Of a DNA stretch of 64,000 nt, positions 8,931 to 61,159 are shown one piece after another. The notes below the pieces were generated by a model. That model had not been told where the DNA came from and did not search any database. It was given only the letters and a program-made list of their open reading frames with translations. Each line of letters opens with the position of its first letter. The first letter of the stretch is position 1. The DNA is from Candidatus Levybacteria bacterium RIFCSPHIGHO2_01_FULL_40_16 (GTDB lineage Bacteria > Patescibacteriota > Microgenomatia > Levybacterales > UBA12049), in assembly GCA_001783805.1 (NCBI GenBank), contig MFNS01000007.1, forward strand, positions 89,975-153,974, written 5' to 3'. The position numbers and the translations under genes are program-made.

Positions 8931-8945
8931 CTATTAGCAATTCTG

Positions 8946-9017
8946 CTCCTCCGAGAGGATTCGAACCTCTAACCTTGTCCTTAACAGGGACCTGCTCTAC
9001 CATTGAGCTACAGAGGA
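8946..9017 (-). tRNA. tRNA-Asn (anticodon GUU), intact
   Basis: Folded by hand. Acceptor UCCUCUG/CGGAGGA with G73, D-arm GCUC-AAUGGUA-GAGC, anticodon loop CUGUUAA, T-arm AGAGG-UUCGAAU-CCUCU. Ends match E. coli tRNA-Asn. Confidence 0.85.
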
Positions 9018-9031
9018 GCAGAATTGCTAGA

Positions 9032-9280
9032 CTACTTTAATCTTCCTTTTAAATATTTTCTACCAAATCCTGTTTTCAGCGCCTTTTCTCTTTTAATAGC
9101 GTTTCCCCTTGATAAACATGCCTCATAGTATACCAAAACCATAGGCGACCTGCTTTTAGTTGCTGTTACTTTTCCCCTGTTGTGTTCTGATACTCTTTCA
9201 ACTAAATCATCGGACCAACCGATATACAAATTATTATCCTTTTTACTTTGCAAAACGTATGTATAAAAAAATTTTGCCAC
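9032..9280 (-). CDS. Small GIY-YIG nuclease family protein (YhbQ/UPF0213-like, 82 aa)
   Basis: FYTYVLQS...NLYIGWSDDLVERVSEHN...YYE...AIKREKALK is a typical small GIY-YIG domain. The likely start is GTG at 9280. The ORF-track ATG at 9340 is created by the tRNA D-loop/palindrome junction and is probably not used. Confidence 0.8.
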   Translation of the reverse strand: MAKFFYTYVLQSKKDNNLYIGWSDDLVERVSEHNRGKVTATKSRSPMVLVYYEACLSRGNAIKREKALKTGFGRKYLKGRLK

Positions 9281-9293
9281 ATCTGCACACTTT

Positions 9294-9354
9294 CTACCTG
9301 CCCGCAATCGCTGAAGTGATAGCTTCTGCAAGCGGGCCATTGAGCTACAGAGGA
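9294..9354 (-). pseudogene. tRNA-Asn 5' fragment (nt 1-17) + 40-nt palindromic element (copy a) + GTAG (nt 18-21), truncated by the GIY-YIG gene
   Basis: 9338-9354 is the reverse complement of UCCUCUGUAGCUCAAUG. 9298-9337 is the palindrome. 9294-9297 is GTAG of the D-loop. Confidence 0.55.
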
Positions 9355-34989: not shown

Positions 34990-34995
34990 AAAAAG

Positions 34996-35067
34996 TACCA
35001 GGGGTGGGGATCGGACCCACAACCGCAGCGTTATGAATGCTGTGCTCCACCATTGAGCTACCCTGGC
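34996..35067 (-). tRNA. tRNA-Met (anticodon CAU), elongator-type, intron-less
   Basis: Hand fold: acceptor GCCAGGG/CCCUGGU, D-arm GCUC-AAUGGUG-GAGC, anticodon loop UUCAUAA, T-arm GUGGG-UCCGAUC-CCCAC. Confidence 0.8.
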
Positions 35068-35076
35068 GAGTGTTAA

Positions 35077-35787
35077 CTATTTTAACATTTTTAGTCCTTC
35101 AATCCAACCCTTCATCTTCAATAACCGATCTAAGCTTTCTCTTACATGAATCCTTAAAACTCCGTGATAATTAACCGTATTATACTGTTTTTTCCACTTC
35201 GAGGTTTGAAAAAAAGGTTTCGTAAACTGATCTAATGGTATTCCAATTGTTCTTGCCCAAAAACCTTGTATTTCATTAATCTTATCTTCATACAGACAAT
35301 TAAGCGTCAGTCTTGCAACTAATTGACTCTTATCGACGCCCAAATACTTTTCCAGCCAATAAATATAAAATTTAATCATTGCTGGATCGGAATTACAGAA
35401 ACCCAATCGGTGCTCATGCCTATTCTTAAATCCTTCTGCCCAATATAGGGAAACTCCCGCGATTAAAAAATCCCTAGGACTTAGTTTTCCAATTTCCTTT
35501 AGCCCAATTTCCAATAATTCTTTTTCATTTTTTTGCCTTTTTTCTTTCTGAACTGTCTGAAACCGCACTCTTCCCTTTTGCAATGATTTTTGAACACGGT
35601 TTTTCAAAACCAAAGCCTGGTTTTTAGATAAAATAATATCTCTAATCCAAGTACGAATAGTTGTACGAGGGACACCTGTATTTTGGAATATCTGGCCAAG
35701 ACTAAAGCCTTTCTGTCTTAGATGGCGAACTTTATTCTTTATATCTTGGCTATATTGCACATATCTATTATGCGCACTTATATGCAT
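35077..35787 (-). CDS. HTH-domain protein, possible LAGLIDADG-type homing endonuclease (FLIAGVSLYWAEGFK), lying between two tRNA(CAU) genes
   Basis: N-terminal HTH (GFSLGQIFQNTGVPRTTIRTWI) and a degenerate LAGLIDADG-like motif. Start placed at ATG 35787, because the longer ORF-track start would overlap the tRNA exon on the other strand. Confidence 0.45.
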   Translation of the reverse strand: MHISAHNRYVQYSQDIKNKVRHLRQKGFSLGQIFQNTGVPRTTIRTWIRDIILSKNQALVLKNRVQKSLQKGRVRFQTVQKEKRQKNEKELLEIGLKEIGKLSPRDFLIAGVSLYWAEGFKNRHEHRLGFCNSDPAMIKFYIYWLEKYLGVDKSQLVARLTLNCLYEDKINEIQGFWARTIGIPLDQFTKPFFQTSKWKKQYNTVNYHGVLRIHVRESLDRLLKMKGWIEGLKMLK

Positions 35788-35871
35788 AATGTCAATAAGA
35801 AATTGATAATCTCGAGCGTTGTACAATGTCGTATTGACTACAACCTCTAATTCTGATAAGATGCTTCTACG

Positions 35872-36143
35872 CGCGGGGTAGTGTACAGTGCACGTGAGGC
35901 TCAAAATGGGCCTCCCGCCAAGTAATTGACGGGAAGAACTTAGCTATATCGGTGAAACCCTAGATGGATTCAGGGTAATACCGAGGGAATCCCGATTCGA
36001 TCGGGAACTCCGTAGAGACTACACGCTAAGCCCCCTGCACATTTCAAAGATGTGAGAGGGGTGAAGATATAGTCCGACACTCTGGGTAACCGGAGCAACA
36101 GATGCATAATCTCACAGGTCGGGCGCAACTCCCGACCCCGCAA
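35872..36143 (+). tRNA. Initiator-like tRNA-Met (CAU) interrupted by a group I intron: exon 1 35872-35901, exon 2 36105-36143
   Basis: Acceptor CGCGGGG/CCCCGCA + A73 (C1xA72 mismatch, identical to E. coli tRNA-fMet). Anticodon stem UGAGG/UCUCA. Spliced loop CU-CAU-AA. Atypical D-loop (ACAGU) and T-loop (CGCAACU). Confidence 0.75.
35902..36104 (+). ncRNA. Group I self-splicing intron (203 nt) between U33 and C34 of the tRNA
   Basis: P1 is exon GAGGCU pairing with GGGCCUC, with U-G at the splice site. P-like AAUUGACGGGAAG (35924-35936). R CCGUAGAGACUACACG (36010-36025). P8 hairpin (36032-36061). S GAAGAUAUAGUCCGAC (36063-36078). P9 ACUCUGG-GUAA-CCGGAG (36079-36095). Terminal G at 36104. Confidence 0.8.
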
Positions 36144-36150
36144 CATATCC

Positions 36151-36486
36151 TCATTTAAAGAATAAATTCCACCACTTTTTCCAATTCGGATCGTTATCTT
36201 TCAGTATCTCTTGGGAGTTTTCCGATTCCTGCGGGATAAGTACCTTTTGCTCACCCTCTTTAACCATGAAGAGCTTGTCCCGAGCCTCTCTTTCGATAAA
36301 TTCCTGGGTTTGAGAATAGGAAAGTGCAGATTTTAATCTTTGATTCTCCTGCTTCTGGAAATCTAATTCTTTTTGCGCCTGTGTAACAAAATCTTTTTTT
36401 TGCCAAATATTAAACACGGAATTTACTAAATTATTAATAATAAAGAGTAGGATGACTACGATTATAATAAAGATAATTTTTTTCAT
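36151..36486 (-). CDS. Septum formation initiator family protein (FtsB/DivIC-like)
   Basis: N-terminal TM followed by a coiled-coil (QKQENQRLKSAL...). Size 111 aa. Confidence 0.65.
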   Translation of the reverse strand: MKKIIFIIIVVILLFIINNLVNSVFNIWQKKDFVTQAQKELDFQKQENQRLKSALSYSQTQEFIEREARDKLFMVKEGEQKVLIPQESENSQEILKDNDPNWKKWWNLFFK

Positions 36487-36536
36487 CTTGACTTACAACT
36501 CTTTTACTGATATTATAGGCTATCTAAATTCTAGAT

Positions 36537-37397
36537 ATGAAAGCAATTAACATCCAAGATGCACATCAAGCATTCAAAAAATACTTAAGCGAGAATAAGC
36601 GCTCGGCATCAACCATTGTAGCATATGGTAAAGATATTGAGCAGTTGGTTAATTTTTTGAAGGAGCTTTCCAAAAGCTACGTCCACGAAGCAACCAAAGA
36701 AGACCTTGAAGCATTTTTGGCTAAAATGGCCAAAAACGGCTATACTCCGAAGTCAATTTCCAGAAAACTCAACTCAACCAGAACGTTTTATAGGTTCCTT
36801 AAGGTAAATGACTCTGTGACCGCTGATCCTTCTCTGCTCATTGCGCATCCAAGATATCAATTGGCGGCCCCCAGAATTCTGACTCCCACAGAGTATCGGG
36901 CTTTGCGAGATGCGGCCAGAAATGATTCACGCATGTTTGCGATTATTGAGCTTTTACTCCAAACAGGAATCCGGATTGGGGAATTAGCTAACCTCAAACT
37001 CTCCGATATTCGCAAAGATGGATTGCATATTGCTCCCGCCGAAAAACATGGAGAAAGAATAGTTCCCTTGAACGCGAGAGCCAAGGAAGCATTAAATAAG
37101 TATTTAGAAATAAGACCGAAAACAAACACGGAACATTTATTTATCACCAAATCAGGCAAGCCATTTTTGATCAGAAATATCCGAACTGCGGTTGAGAGAT
37201 ATTTCCGCTTAGCCGAAGTGAAGAATGCTAAAGTGAATGATCTGCGCCATACCTTCGTGGCATATCATTTAAAACATGGTGTTTCTTTGGTTTTGATTTC
37301 AAAAGTTTTAGGACACAAAAGAATTTCTACAACCGAAAGATATCTTGAATATGTTCCTGACCGCGCGCATGAGAATAGCATCCTCAACGAACTCTAA
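36537..37397 (+). CDS. Tyrosine recombinase XerC/XerD family
   Basis: C-terminal catalytic R...HxxR...Y: LRHTFVAYHL...LGHKRISTTERYLEY. Confidence 0.85.
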   Translation: MKAINIQDAHQAFKKYLSENKRSASTIVAYGKDIEQLVNFLKELSKSYVHEATKEDLEAFLAKMAKNGYTPKSISRKLNSTRTFYRFLKVNDSVTADPSLLIAHPRYQLAAPRILTPTEYRALRDAARNDSRMFAIIELLLQTGIRIGELANLKLSDIRKDGLHIAPAEKHGERIVPLNARAKEALNKYLEIRPKTNTEHLFITKSGKPFLIRNIRTAVERYFRLAEVKNAKVNDLRHTFVAYHLKHGVSLVLISKVLGHKRISTTERYLEYVPDRAHENSILNEL

Positions 37398-38095
37398 GGA
37401 AGTTTGAGGCGGACGAAGTTTTCTGCGAATTTAAAGCCTTTTTTCTCTCCCAATATTCTTGCTCTCTCTAAAACTCTTTTTTTCACCTGCTTAAAATCTG
37501 CAAATTGACTGACATGCATGGACAAAGCTTTTATTTTTTGTTCAATATTTTTTGAAATATCTACCAGACGGTCAACCTTATCAAAGCTAACCATCCACAA
37601 TTCCTCGACCCGATGCGGAGTTAATCCATCTTTCTCCAATTCCTGGAAAGTTAAGCGGTCTCGGCACAAAGGAAAACACGCATCCATGGCTGCCAATCCG
37701 GCCGCGCGGTGATCCGTATGATTGACAAATCCCCTATCTTGTGAGTAATAAAATGTCGGATCCATTGAAATGACAATACTTGGTTTAACTTTTCTAATTA
37801 TCCTAACTATTTCTTTTTTGAGGATTAAGTCGGCAACTAATTGCGTGTCTGTGTGATTAAAAAAAAATATTTTTTTAAGGCCCAAAATCTTGCCTGAAGC
37901 TTCCTGTTCTTCTCGCCTAATTTTCACCAAACGCTGGTGGGTCATTTTGGGATCATCCGAACCACGGCTACCGTCTGTACAAATTATTAAATAGGCCTCC
38001 CAGCCTTCTTTTGCCAATTTAGCCAGAGTTCCGGATGCGCCGAAATCCATATCATCAGGATGTGCACCCACTGCCAAAATCGTTTTATTTTTCAT
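37394..38095 (-). CDS. PIG-L/LmbE family deacetylase
   Basis: ILAVGAHPDDMDFGASGTL (HPDDE-like zinc motif) and HxDH. Confidence 0.8.
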   Translation of the reverse strand: MKNKTILAVGAHPDDMDFGASGTLAKLAKEGWEAYLIICTDGSRGSDDPKMTHQRLVKIRREEQEASGKILGLKKIFFFNHTDTQLVADLILKKEIVRIIRKVKPSIVISMDPTFYYSQDRGFVNHTDHRAAGLAAMDACFPLCRDRLTFQELEKDGLTPHRVEELWMVSFDKVDRLVDISKNIEQKIKALSMHVSQFADFKQVKKRVLERARILGEKKGFKFAENFVRLKLP

Positions 38096-38102
38096 AATAA
38101 TG

Positions 38103-38173
38103 TAGGCCCAGGGGGAATCGAACCCGCATCAGGTGTGTATAAGACACCCGCTTTACCATTAAGCTATGGGCCT
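38103..38173 (-). tRNA. tRNA-Ile with anticodon UAU (reads AUA)
   Basis: Hand fold: acceptor AGGCCCA/UGGGCCU, D-arm GCUU-AAUGGUA-AAGC, anticodon stem GGUGU/ACACC with loop CUUAUAC, T-arm GCGGG-UUCGAUU-CCCCC (one C-C mismatch). Confidence 0.7.
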
Positions 38174-58750: not shown

Positions 58751-59176
58751 CTACGTAGTATTATCTAATGCTTCGTTAACAAACGCGTCTGCTATTGCAT
58801 TTTGTTCTCTGGGAATATGTTTATAAAACATTGGCAGGCATATTTGTCCTTCCCTATCCCGAACGTCCAGAAGTAAGTCTTTAAGAGCAACATTTTTTAC
58901 TTTAAAAATTCCAATTATCTGCGAGCAAACCAGCCTTGAGTCTAGAAAAAAATGTATTTTCGCATTTTCCGCTAAAGCTTTTTTATTCTCAATTATCCAA
59001 TCAAGCGCCTCAATTACTGCCTTGTATTCTGCAACATTGTTAGTGGATATTTCAATTGTTCTTCCAAAACCGGCAATTTTTTTATTTTTCTCATCTGAAA
59101 TATAAACTCCGATTGCTGCGGGCCCGGGGTTTCCTCTGGCTCCACCATCTGTAAAAATATTTAAAGCGTTTATCAT
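58751..59176 (-). CDS. rnhA: Ribonuclease HI
   Basis: FTDGGARGNPGPAA...AEY...D RNase H catalytic pattern. Confidence 0.85.
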   Translation of the reverse strand: MINALNIFTDGGARGNPGPAAIGVYISDEKNKKIAGFGRTIEISTNNVAEYKAVIEALDWIIENKKALAENAKIHFFLDSRLVCSQIIGIFKVKNVALKDLLLDVRDREGQICLPMFYKHIPREQNAIADAFVNEALDNTT

Positions 59177-59305
59177 GTTTTCAGTTTATCACGAAAGAGT
59201 ATATTTACAAAGAGGCTAATATGTTCATTTTCGCAAAAAGTTCTTATATTAAATTTCATCTAATGATTTCTTTTGGGATAAAATTGGGGGAGTAAATTGT
59301 GAAAA

Positions 59306-59776
59306 TTATTTAACTTTGGGGCTGACCACCAAAACTCTATCACGACCTTCACCTTGGGATCCGGAAATAACTTCATCATCTTTTTCTAGCAATAAGTGAA
59401 CTATTCTTCTTTCCCAAGATTTCAGCTCGGGAATTGCAATTTCTTTTCCTTCAGCCAAAACTCTTTCTTTTGTTTCCAGCGCCAAAGCTTTCAGCATTTC
59501 CGTTCTGTTTTTCTTGTAATCTCCAACATCAATTGAGATACGAACAAACCTTCCCAGATTTCTGGCAACACACAAAGATAAAGCTAATTGCAACCCTTCG
59601 AGGGTATCTCCATGATAGCCAATTACTACTCCCGTATCCTTGGTATTAAGAACTATTTCTACACCTTCCGCATCTTTACCCTTTGGTTCCAAGATCTCAA
59701 AATCTCCTTCAATATCCAGAAGTTTTAAGAGTTTTTCCGTTATTTCCTTAATGGTTTTTATTTCTTTTTTATCCAT
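59306..59776 (-). CDS. jag: Jag/R3H RNA-binding protein (KH + R3H)
   Basis: KH-like VIGYHGDTLEGLQ and C-terminal R3H (ELKSWERRIVHLLL). Located next to yidC. Confidence 0.8.
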   Translation of the reverse strand: MDKKEIKTIKEITEKLLKLLDIEGDFEILEPKGKDAEGVEIVLNTKDTGVVIGYHGDTLEGLQLALSLCVARNLGRFVRISIDVGDYKKNRTEMLKALALETKERVLAEGKEIAIPELKSWERRIVHLLLEKDDEVISGSQGEGRDRVLVVSPKVK

Positions 59777-60606
59777 GCGCTTAATCCCCCAAGCCCCGCA
59801 ATTTTATATTGCTGTATGATACCAAAAACCGTAAAAGTATTCCAGTACAAGGATAGTCCGATCGGAAAACCGAAAGAGAAAAATCCGATCATGATCGGAA
59901 ATATAAACATGGATTGCGTCTGAAAAGCACTGGCAAAATCACTGGCATCTTTTTTATCAATCTGCGTTTTCTTCTCAATATCTTTTTCCAAAATCGCAAC
60001 TCCCGTCTTTGCAGGAATCATCATTTTGGAAAGAATAAATTGAAAAACCCCCGTTAAAATAGGGACCAGTAATATTAATGAACTTACCGCGAATAAATTG
60101 TTAAAAGACATGATTTTTGAAGGCATTTCTCCAAGAGGAAGTCCAAAAAAAGAAATATCCCAAGCGTTTTTCAATTTTAAAAAATCAAAATAAACGATTT
60201 TATTAACCTCTGCAATGGCGGCTTCGGGTTTGAGGGTTACCATGCGTTGCAAAACCGAGTAAAGTGCCCAGATAATTGGCAGCTGTATAAGTACAGGCAG
60301 GCATCCCGCAGCAGGATTAATTCCATGCTCTTTGTAAAGCCTCATTGTTTCCTCCTGCATTTTTTTTGCATCCCCCTTATGTCTTTCCTTAAGTTTTGAC
60401 AAATGAGGAGCAATCTTCTGCATTTTCATTGACGCTTTTAGCTGGGCGGTGGTCATGGGATATAAAATAAATCTAATGACAATTGTCAGTCCGATGATCG
60501 CAAACCCCAGGGCATACGGAAGGTGTATAAAAGAAAAAACCGAATAAACGGCTACCAAAATATTTATAATTGGATTGATAAAAACTAAATTAAAAAAATC
60601 TCCCAT
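59758..60606 (-). CDS. yidC: Membrane protein insertase YidC (short form)
   Basis: Five-TM Oxa1/YidC core. Position in the rnpA-yidD-yidC-jag cluster. Confidence 0.9.
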   Translation of the reverse strand: MGDFFNLVFINPIINILVAVYSVFSFIHLPYALGFAIIGLTIVIRFILYPMTTAQLKASMKMQKIAPHLSKLKERHKGDAKKMQEETMRLYKEHGINPAAGCLPVLIQLPIIWALYSVLQRMVTLKPEAAIAEVNKIVYFDFLKLKNAWDISFFGLPLGEMPSKIMSFNNLFAVSSLILLVPILTGVFQFILSKMMIPAKTGVAILEKDIEKKTQIDKKDASDFASAFQTQSMFIFPIMIGFFSFGFPIGLSLYWNTFTVFGIIQQYKIAGLGGLSAWIKKK

Positions 60607-60617
60607 AAATTAATCCT

Positions 60618-60830
60618 TCAGCTGACGGGAAAAAACGGCTGGCATTTTAAGATTCTTATTGCGGATTTTTGCAAGCCCTGAAAAATGCCATTCTTGTTAA
60701 TTGAAATTTTTGCGTATTCGGAGCAGGTGGGGGAATGCCGGCACATTTTCTGCACTCCTAAAACATTTTTTAAAGCTACCGAAATAAAGCTTTGATAAAT
60801 ATCAATAATTAAAAGCAAAAATTTTTTCAT
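60618..60830 (-). CDS. yidD: Membrane protein insertion efficiency factor YidD
   Basis: CRHSPTCSEY motif. 70 aa. Confidence 0.8.
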   Translation of the reverse strand: MKKFLLLIIDIYQSFISVALKNVLGVQKMCRHSPTCSEYAKISINKNGIFQGLQKSAIRILKCQPFFPVS

Positions 60831-61159
60831 TTCTTAATAAGCCCTGCTTTTTCTAATGCACTTCTTACCATAAGCAAATTTTCTTCTTTAGTTTTACCAA
60901 TTATTCCTTTTTTTACAATAAGAAGTATATCATGTCCGACATTTATTTTTTTCTCTAAATTTAAAAGTGTTGTTCTAAAAAATCTTTTTATCCTGTTTCG
61001 GATAACTGCTCTTTTGTCAATTTTTTTTGAGACAACAATCCCAAACCTGTTAATTTCCAGTCCATTTTTTTTCTCTTTCAGCAAAAATTGGGGAGTAGAG
61101 ATGAGATGAGAATTGCTAAAGCTTATTCCTGGAACAAGACGGTTCTCTTTTTTAAACAT
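60827..61159 (-). CDS. rnpA: RNase P protein component
   Basis: Basic ~110-aa protein downstream of rpmH with an RNR-like motif (KRAVIRNRIKRFFR). Confidence 0.85.
   Translation of the reverse strand: MFKKENRLVPGISFSNSHLISTPQFLLKEKKNGLEINRFGIVVSKKIDKRAVIRNRIKRFFRTTLLNLEKKINVGHDILLIVKKGIIGKTKEENLLMVRSALEKAGLIKK

Follow-up and report, generated by a model that had tools for sequence, protein, structure and literature searches.

How does a bacterium of the Levybacteria lineage read the codon AUA? The genetic code has a classic weak point here, since AUA has to be read as isoleucine while AUG is not misread, and nearly all bacteria rely for this on the essential enzyme TilS. Lineages that naturally dispense with lysidine are therefore independent experiments in the retuning of tRNA, isoleucyl-tRNA synthetase (IleRS) and ribosome. 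The 64,000-nucleotide stretch of Levybacteria DNA analyzed here, referred to below as the window, contains a tRNA gene with a UAU anticodon. This gene is confirmed as a genuine tRNA-Ile(UAU), and it probably acts as a working, lysidine-free AUA decoder of its genome.

The tRNA-Ile(UAU) gene and its chromosomal setting

Analysis of the 64-kb window with ARAGORN yielded three tRNA calls, a tRNA-Asn(gtt) at 8945-9017 on the minus strand, a tRNA-Met(cat) and a tRNA-Ile(tat), the last located at 38102-38173 on the minus strand. The Rfam tRNA model (RF00005) matched 38103-38173 of the same strand over its full length (model positions 1-71). The 66.4 bits of this match (E 3e-12) lie well above the gathering score, which is 29, and on a level with the scores of the other tRNAs in the window. 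Both methods thus agree on a 71-nt tRNA-Ile gene with a UAU anticodon at 38103-38173, exactly to the base where a previous sequence-only reading had placed it, and they assign it to the minus strand. The encoded RNA, AGGCCCAUAGCUUAAUGGUAAAGCGGGUGUCUUAUACACACCUGAUGCGGGUUCGAUUCCCCCUGGGCCUA, has an acceptor stem of 7 bp, a D stem of 4 bp and an anticodon stem of 5 bp, and its anticodon loop, CUUAUAC, is the one that had been read by hand. The variable region has 4 nt in the Rfam alignment, and 3 nt plus an extra G26-U44 pair in the ARAGORN drawing. The cloverleaf, previously described as clean, is so save for a single flaw, the T-stem mismatch C50xC64. The discriminator base is A73 and CCA is not encoded. 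Six independent assemblies of the same organism carry an identical gene sequence. No sigma-70-like promoter was found on the tRNA strand in a scan that is uninformative for a CPR host.

The window is ordinary chromosomal DNA, about 91% coding (by a simple greedy choice of open reading frames) and with 35-42% G+C, and includes dnaA, dnaG, valS, trpS, guaA, purD, ruvAB, ftsH, yidC and rnpA. Exact matches to its proteins occur in Candidatus Levybacteria MAGs of the Rifle aquifer series (among them RIFCSPHIGHO2_12_FULL_39_9, RIFCSPHIGHO2_01_FULL_40_16 and GCA_001782525.1) and on many metagenome contigs of up to 776 kb, which assigns the organism to the Microgenomates branch of the CPR (Patescibacteria). 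Near its left end, a 102-aa ORF with a Pfam match to GIY-YIG nucleases (9032-9340, minus strand) adjoins the tRNA-Asn gene, and a 104.9-kb contig from this organism has its right end at about the same place (∼9032-9340). At 58751-61159 (minus strand), genes for an RNase H and a DUF4012 protein come after rnpA-yidC-jag, at a position occupied by mnmE-mnmG in many bacteria; no genes for U34 modification were recognized among the annotated genes of the window.

The immediate neighbors of the tRNA-Ile(UAU) gene match the Phage_integrase family and the T4SS coupling-protein family (a TraG/TrwB-like ATPase). Together with the T-stem mismatch, these matches could be taken to indicate a non-functional or accessory copy, either a decaying pseudogene or a tRNA carried by a mobile element. 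The Rfam score, on a par with those of the other tRNAs, argues against decay, as do the 13 distinct sequences recovered from relatives, all of which keep TAT (see below). As for a mobile origin, the window holds no second copy of the 3' half of the tRNA and hence no att-like duplication, the genes around it have housekeeping functions, and the flanking 'integrase' has the domain pair of the XerC/D type and is a conserved neighbor of the tRNA. TrwB-like and Xer genes also adjoin tRNA(UAU) in diverged relatives, among them Levyibacteriota, Curtissbacteria and other loci (e.g. L025, L078, L119), and the TrwB-like gene alone is found beside it in two more (L085, L093). Since the neighbors are conserved and the 3' half is unrepeated, a mobile-element origin was rejected, and a non-functional or accessory copy of either kind is considered very improbable.

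Conservation in Levybacteria and other Patescibacteria

Relatives of the window were collected from metagenomes using its FtsH as the query, which recovered 80 Levybacteria-like loci (FtsH 69-90% identical, ∼1 Mb in total). The only tRNAs in these loci are 14 tRNA-Ile(tat) genes, which make up the 13 distinct sequences mentioned above, and 41 genes with a CAU anticodon. Forty of the latter are of the Met or fMet type, and the remaining one, which could not be parsed, lies at the position of the initiator-exon match in L165.

A broader survey, limited to one genome per species, used a search pattern made up of a D arm and, at the place of the anticodon, CTTATA, and returned at least 120 loci. 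Judged by record title, the matches listed comprise at least 54 CPR, at least 21 archaeal (mostly DPANN) and at least 45 other bacterial loci. According to ARAGORN, 53 of these 54 CPR loci and 44 of the 45 other bacterial ones do contain a tRNA(tat), so that at least 53 CPR species carry a confirmed tRNA(UAU). Across the 53 CPR genes among the matches listed, pairing is kept at 98.8% of stem positions, and each stem position varies among 2-6 pair types except for two invariant T-stem G-C pairs; the D arm was fixed by the search pattern and its positions are therefore uninformative in this comparison. The anticodon loop is CUUAUAC in 31 of the 53 and CUUAUAA in 21. Since paired stems and the TAT anticodon are kept across diverged relatives, these comparisons show a gene that is maintained by selection and vertically inherited in the Levybacteria lineage.

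Several matches with Gammaproteobacteria or Bathyarchaeia titles encode proteins that are 56-78% identical to those of the window; among such loci are L010, L050 and L078 (Gammaproteobacteria) and L019 (Bathyarchaeia). In all four the tRNA(UAU) adjoins TrwB-like/Xer genes, and their TrwB-like and Xer proteins are 44-79% identical to those of the window. They are probably mis-binned CPR contigs, in which case the CPR share of the listed matches would be underestimated. The archaeal matches belong mostly to DPANN groups (Woesearchaeota, Pacearchaeota, Nanoarchaeota, Aenigmatarchaeota and Undinarchaeota), and with ARAGORN in bacterial mode a tRNA(tat) was confirmed in 4 of the 21 listed (L019-L124).

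Gene order around the tRNA was also recurrent. The ftsH gene is present in at least 25 of the tRNA(UAU) loci of the species scan, and in at least 15 the tRNA lies downstream of ftsH in the same orientation and at less than 1 kb, often at only 50-150 nt (loci with both genes include L008, L012, L024, L026, L046, L048, L065, L099, L114 and L117). The order ftsH-tRNA-Ile(UAU) is widely conserved in Parcubacteria and Saccharibacteria; in the window, by contrast, the tRNA lies 7.2 kb upstream of ftsH.

Among cultured or complete genomes, surveys have reported tRNA-Ile(UAU) together with a lack of tilS in 9 species (Taniguchi 2013, PMC3575796), the TAT anticodon in 19 species, and tRNA-Ile3(UAU) in place of tRNA-Ile2(CAU) in 17 genomes, and a 2013 note counted 371 unique tDNA-Ile(TAT) sequences in a metagenome database. 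The sequence-only reading had called a genomic UAU anticodon rare in bacteria. This is true of the cultured genomes covered by such surveys, but not of the CPR lineage, with its 53 or more species and the 14 Levybacteria-like loci. Together, the window example and the matches of the species scan suggest that UAU-type tRNAs are common in Patescibacteria; the scan counts are minimum numbers, not frequencies. No paper tying the CPR to tilS, lysidine or AUA decoding was found in the literature searched, and for this reason the apparent prevalence of tRNA-Ile(UAU) in CPR and DPANN may be under-described.

Amino acid identity of the tRNA and meaning of AUA

A UAU anticodon by itself leaves the amino acid unfixed, and AUA might in principle have been reassigned, the tRNA carrying for example methionine, as in many mitochondria. 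The acceptor stem and discriminator are of the isoleucine type: A1-U72, G2-C71, G3-C70, C4-G69 and A73 are identical to those of E. coli tRNA-Ile(GAU) (ileV), and C5-G68 and U12-A23 are also present. Two determinants of E. coli IleRS differ in the window tRNA, which has C38 rather than A38 and U29-A41 rather than C29-G41. In a survey of 234 genomes, G3 or A3 with C70 or T70 ruled out Met and fMet tRNAs, in which C3-G70 is usual; C4-G69/C5-G68 are often found in tRNAs for isoleucine, and both pairs are determinants of E. coli TilS (Silva 2006). The window tRNA has all three of the isoleucine-side pairs of that survey (G3-C70, C4-G69 and C5-G68), which, with A73 and U12-A23, place it with isoleucine rather than methionine tRNAs. 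The same holds among the 53 listed CPR tRNA(UAU) genes, with G3 or A3 and C70 or T70 in 51, C4-G69 in 39, A73 in all 53 and the methionine-type C3-G70 in none.

The use of AUA in the coding sequences of the window, which the sequence-only reading had left to be counted, proved to be heavy. In 63 non-overlapping ORFs, ATA makes up 402 of 19,272 codons (20.9 per 1000), or 23.6% of the isoleucine codons. In order to assess the meaning of the codon, DnaA, GuaA, ValRS, FtsH and PurD of the window were aligned to the orthologous proteins of E. coli K-12 (36-45% identical), and for each class of codon the E. coli residues facing it were counted, E. coli being chosen as the reference so that the comparison is independent of how AUA is translated in relatives of the organism. 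Opposite AUA (54 positions), the E. coli residue is Ile in 24%, Leu in 28%, Val in 15% and Met in 2% (1/54) of cases; these counts are small, and Leu is as common as Ile. The corresponding Ile fractions are 35% for AUU (125 positions), 15% for AUC (27 positions) and 4% (5/113) for the Leu codons CUU and UUA. Opposite AUG (69 positions), Met occurs in 29% (20/69) and Ile in 10%. Since the residues opposite AUA are mostly Ile, Leu and Val, with so little Met, AUA apparently behaves as an aliphatic, Ile-like codon at conserved positions and not as a Met codon. A reassignment of AUA, for which no specific support was found and against which both the acceptor end and these alignments argue, therefore appears exceedingly improbable.

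AUA decoding, tilS and the methionine tRNAs

If the tRNA carries isoleucine, it remains to be considered whether it is the sole reader of AUA or a second one, added to a tilS gene and a lysidine-dependent tRNA-Ile2(CAU) located elsewhere. The CAU tRNAs of the window bear on this, and both had been predicted to be methionine tRNAs. Examination by the rules of Silva 2006 bears this out, one being an elongator and the other an intron-split tRNA of the initiator type.

The elongator-type tRNA-Met(CAU) lies on the minus strand at 34996-35067 (ARAGORN, 34995-35067; Rfam, 58.6 bits). Its pairs G1-U72, C3-G70, A4-U69, G5-C68, C11-G24 and U12-A23 include the C3-G70 expected by these discriminators and neither an fMet D stem nor Ile-type acceptor pairs. 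At the bottom of its anticodon stem there is an A31xC39 mismatch, which recurs in the L011 homologue (330-404) and has A31xA39 in its place in the L025 homologue, and which thus seems to be conserved and not erroneous.

The initiator-type tRNA-fMet(CAU) was missed by ARAGORN in its unspliced form because the gene is split by an intron. Read by hand on the plus strand, its 5' exon (35872-35901) covers tRNA positions 1-33 and ends in U33, and its 3' exon (36105-36143) covers positions 34-73, with the T loop CGCAACU. Between U33 and C34 lies a group I intron of 203 nt (35902-36104, plus strand), detected by RF00028 at 35892-36096 (plus strand; 67.9 bits, E 4.5e-15). A possible P1 is formed by exon GAGGCU with intron GGCCUC, and the last base of the intron is G. 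When the exons (35872-35901 and 36105-36143) are joined, ARAGORN calls a tRNA-Met(cat). The spliced tRNA has a C1xA72 mismatch, C3-G70 and G12-C23, as bacterial initiators do; it departs from the bacterial initiator set in having U-A rather than A-U at 11-24, and A29-U41/G30-C40/G31-U39 rather than three G-C pairs in the anticodon stem. Intronless CPR homologues show these same traits. The elbow is also unusual, with a short D loop without the usual GG, a D stem of 3 bp in the ARAGORN drawing, and a T loop that is not UUCRANY. The 3' exon is 100% identical in the intronless allele of L146, and the intronless CPR initiator homologues of L011 and L025 have the same D arm and normal T loops.

The intron is present in seven Levybacteria-like relatives (L140, L141, L147, L148, L180, L185 and L200), whose precursors are 72-86% identical over their whole length, and in at least 15 others the exons are contiguous and the intron is absent. 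This looks like the presence/absence polymorphism of a mobile intron. [quoted passage not shown]

Searches for the lysidine system gave negative results throughout. No TilS is encoded in the window, where the sole PP-loop (SGGxDS) protein among the ORFs is GuaA, and neither PF01171 nor IleRS was found in the 10-kb flanks beyond each end. Likewise, neither phmmer with E. coli TilS (E up to 10) nor the motif detected any TilS in the 120 listed loci with tRNA(UAU) or in the 80 found through FtsH (∼2 Mb). No CAU tRNA of the Ile2 type was seen in the window, its flanks, the 80 Levybacteria-like loci or the 120 tRNA(UAU) loci listed. Apart from ValRS itself, a class Ia scan with the ValRS of the window recovered one LeuRS, part of a MetRS and three IleRS of archaea; no IleRS occurs in the window, the flanks or related CPR loci. 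In other bacteria tilS often lies upstream of hpt-ftsH. An argument from this synteny was dropped, as having no bearing either way, because what lies upstream of ftsH in the CPR is a set of unrelated genes (patatin, EF-P, histidine kinase and unknowns; trpS in the window).

Within the genome itself, the searches for tilS, Ile2(CAU) and IleRS covered about 84 kb of at least 776 kb, a scope that leaves room for a second, lysidine-dependent system. Such a redundancy would be consistent with the retention of both E. coli TilS determinants by the window tRNA, and bacteria with both systems exist (Taniguchi 2013, PMC3575796). A UAU tRNA alone would be no proof of tilS loss, as Lactobacillus plantarum and L. 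casei have both. However, in addition to the negative searches in the window, its flanks and the related loci, the three AUR-decoding tRNAs (fMet, elongator Met and Ile(UAU)) fall within 3.2 kb of each other in the window (34996-38173), and they cluster likewise in other Patescibacteria, within ∼0.5 kb in L011 (98-490) and ∼2 kb in L025 (4073-6001), with no fourth member. Also, small CPR genomes would be less likely to keep a redundant pair of enzyme and tRNA. A redundant role for tRNA-Ile(UAU) is accordingly regarded as unlikely, although far less so than a defective gene or a reassigned codon. From the small genome, the compact set of fMet, Met and Ile(UAU), and the precedents discussed below, we infer that tilS and tRNA-Ile2(CAU) are rather likely to be absent from the genome.

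Decoding of AUA by tRNA-Ile(UAU) alone would proceed as follows. The genomically encoded U34 would pair directly with the A of AUA, so that conversion of cytidine to lysidine would not be needed. The IleRS of the organism would have to accept U34, which might be achieved if Arg (or Lys) replaced the Trp that normally contacts the wobble base by stacking (W905 in E. coli), with Arg as in the IleRS of Mycoplasma mobile, or if the enzyme were an IleRS2 of archaeal/eukaryote type, like those of Bifidobacterium and Neorickettsia. AUG would presumably be protected from misreading by the elongator tRNA-Met(CAU) of 34996-35067, which is expected to read AUG and to compete there with tRNA-Ile(UAU), together with properties of the ribosome or a modification of U34.

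A wider and more tentative proposal is that Levybacteria and much of the CPR may have inherited tRNA-Ile(UAU) vertically as their standard AUA decoder, with TilS and lysidine missing lineage-wide; we consider it somewhat less likely than not. If true, it would parallel the loss of TiaS and agmatidine in DPANN archaea, two ultra-small symbiont radiations having converged on the same simplification of the code machinery, and the IleRS and ribosomes of the CPR would hold further independent solutions to AUA/AUG discrimination. In practical terms, Ile(UAU) is to be expected when CPR genomes are annotated. Markers of the tilS family may be missing from these genomes as a rule, a point to check before such a gap is read as incompleteness.

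Several known systems resemble the one proposed here. The nearest in outline is M. mobile, which likewise combines a genomic TAT anticodon on a tRNA-Ile with a small genome and frequent AUA, and in which an unmodified UAU tRNA functions with an adapted IleRS and an adapted ribosome (Taniguchi 2013, PMC3575796). There, the absence of tilS, the unmodified U34, Arg865 of IleRS and ribosomal discrimination against AUG have been established experimentally, whereas the window is known from its sequence. As the CPR are unrelated to Mollicutes, the two systems would have originated independently. In Bifidobacterium and Neorickettsia, tRNA-Ile(UAU) replaces tRNA-Ile2(CAU), tilS is reported to be lacking (PMC3575796), and charging has been attributed to a horizontally acquired IleRS2 of eukaryote/archaeal type. 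L. plantarum and L. casei also have a genomic UAU tRNA-Ile but retain tilS, so that AUA decoding is redundant there, a state proposed to be an intermediate in the evolution of AUA decoding (Taniguchi 2013, PMC3575796).

Outside the bacteria, tRNA-Ile3(UAU) replaces a modified-cytidine decoder in Nanoarchaeum equitans, itself an ultra-small symbiont, and in Korarchaeum cryptofilum, the enzyme lost in that domain being TiaS (agmatidine) and not TilS. In the laboratory, a suppressor of tilS deletion in B. subtilis demonstrates that a UAU tRNA-Ile can sustain AUA decoding without TilS (Fabret 2011; Kohrer 2014, PMC3919564). That suppressor is a G34 to U mutation of tRNA-Ile1, and the first four acceptor pairs of the window tRNA are likewise those of the major type, tRNA-Ile(GAU); in contrast to the laboratory mutant, the window gene is natural and conserved. 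The mechanism is thus already known, and the window adds a probable example of it, with conserved synteny, in a new host lineage, the CPR.
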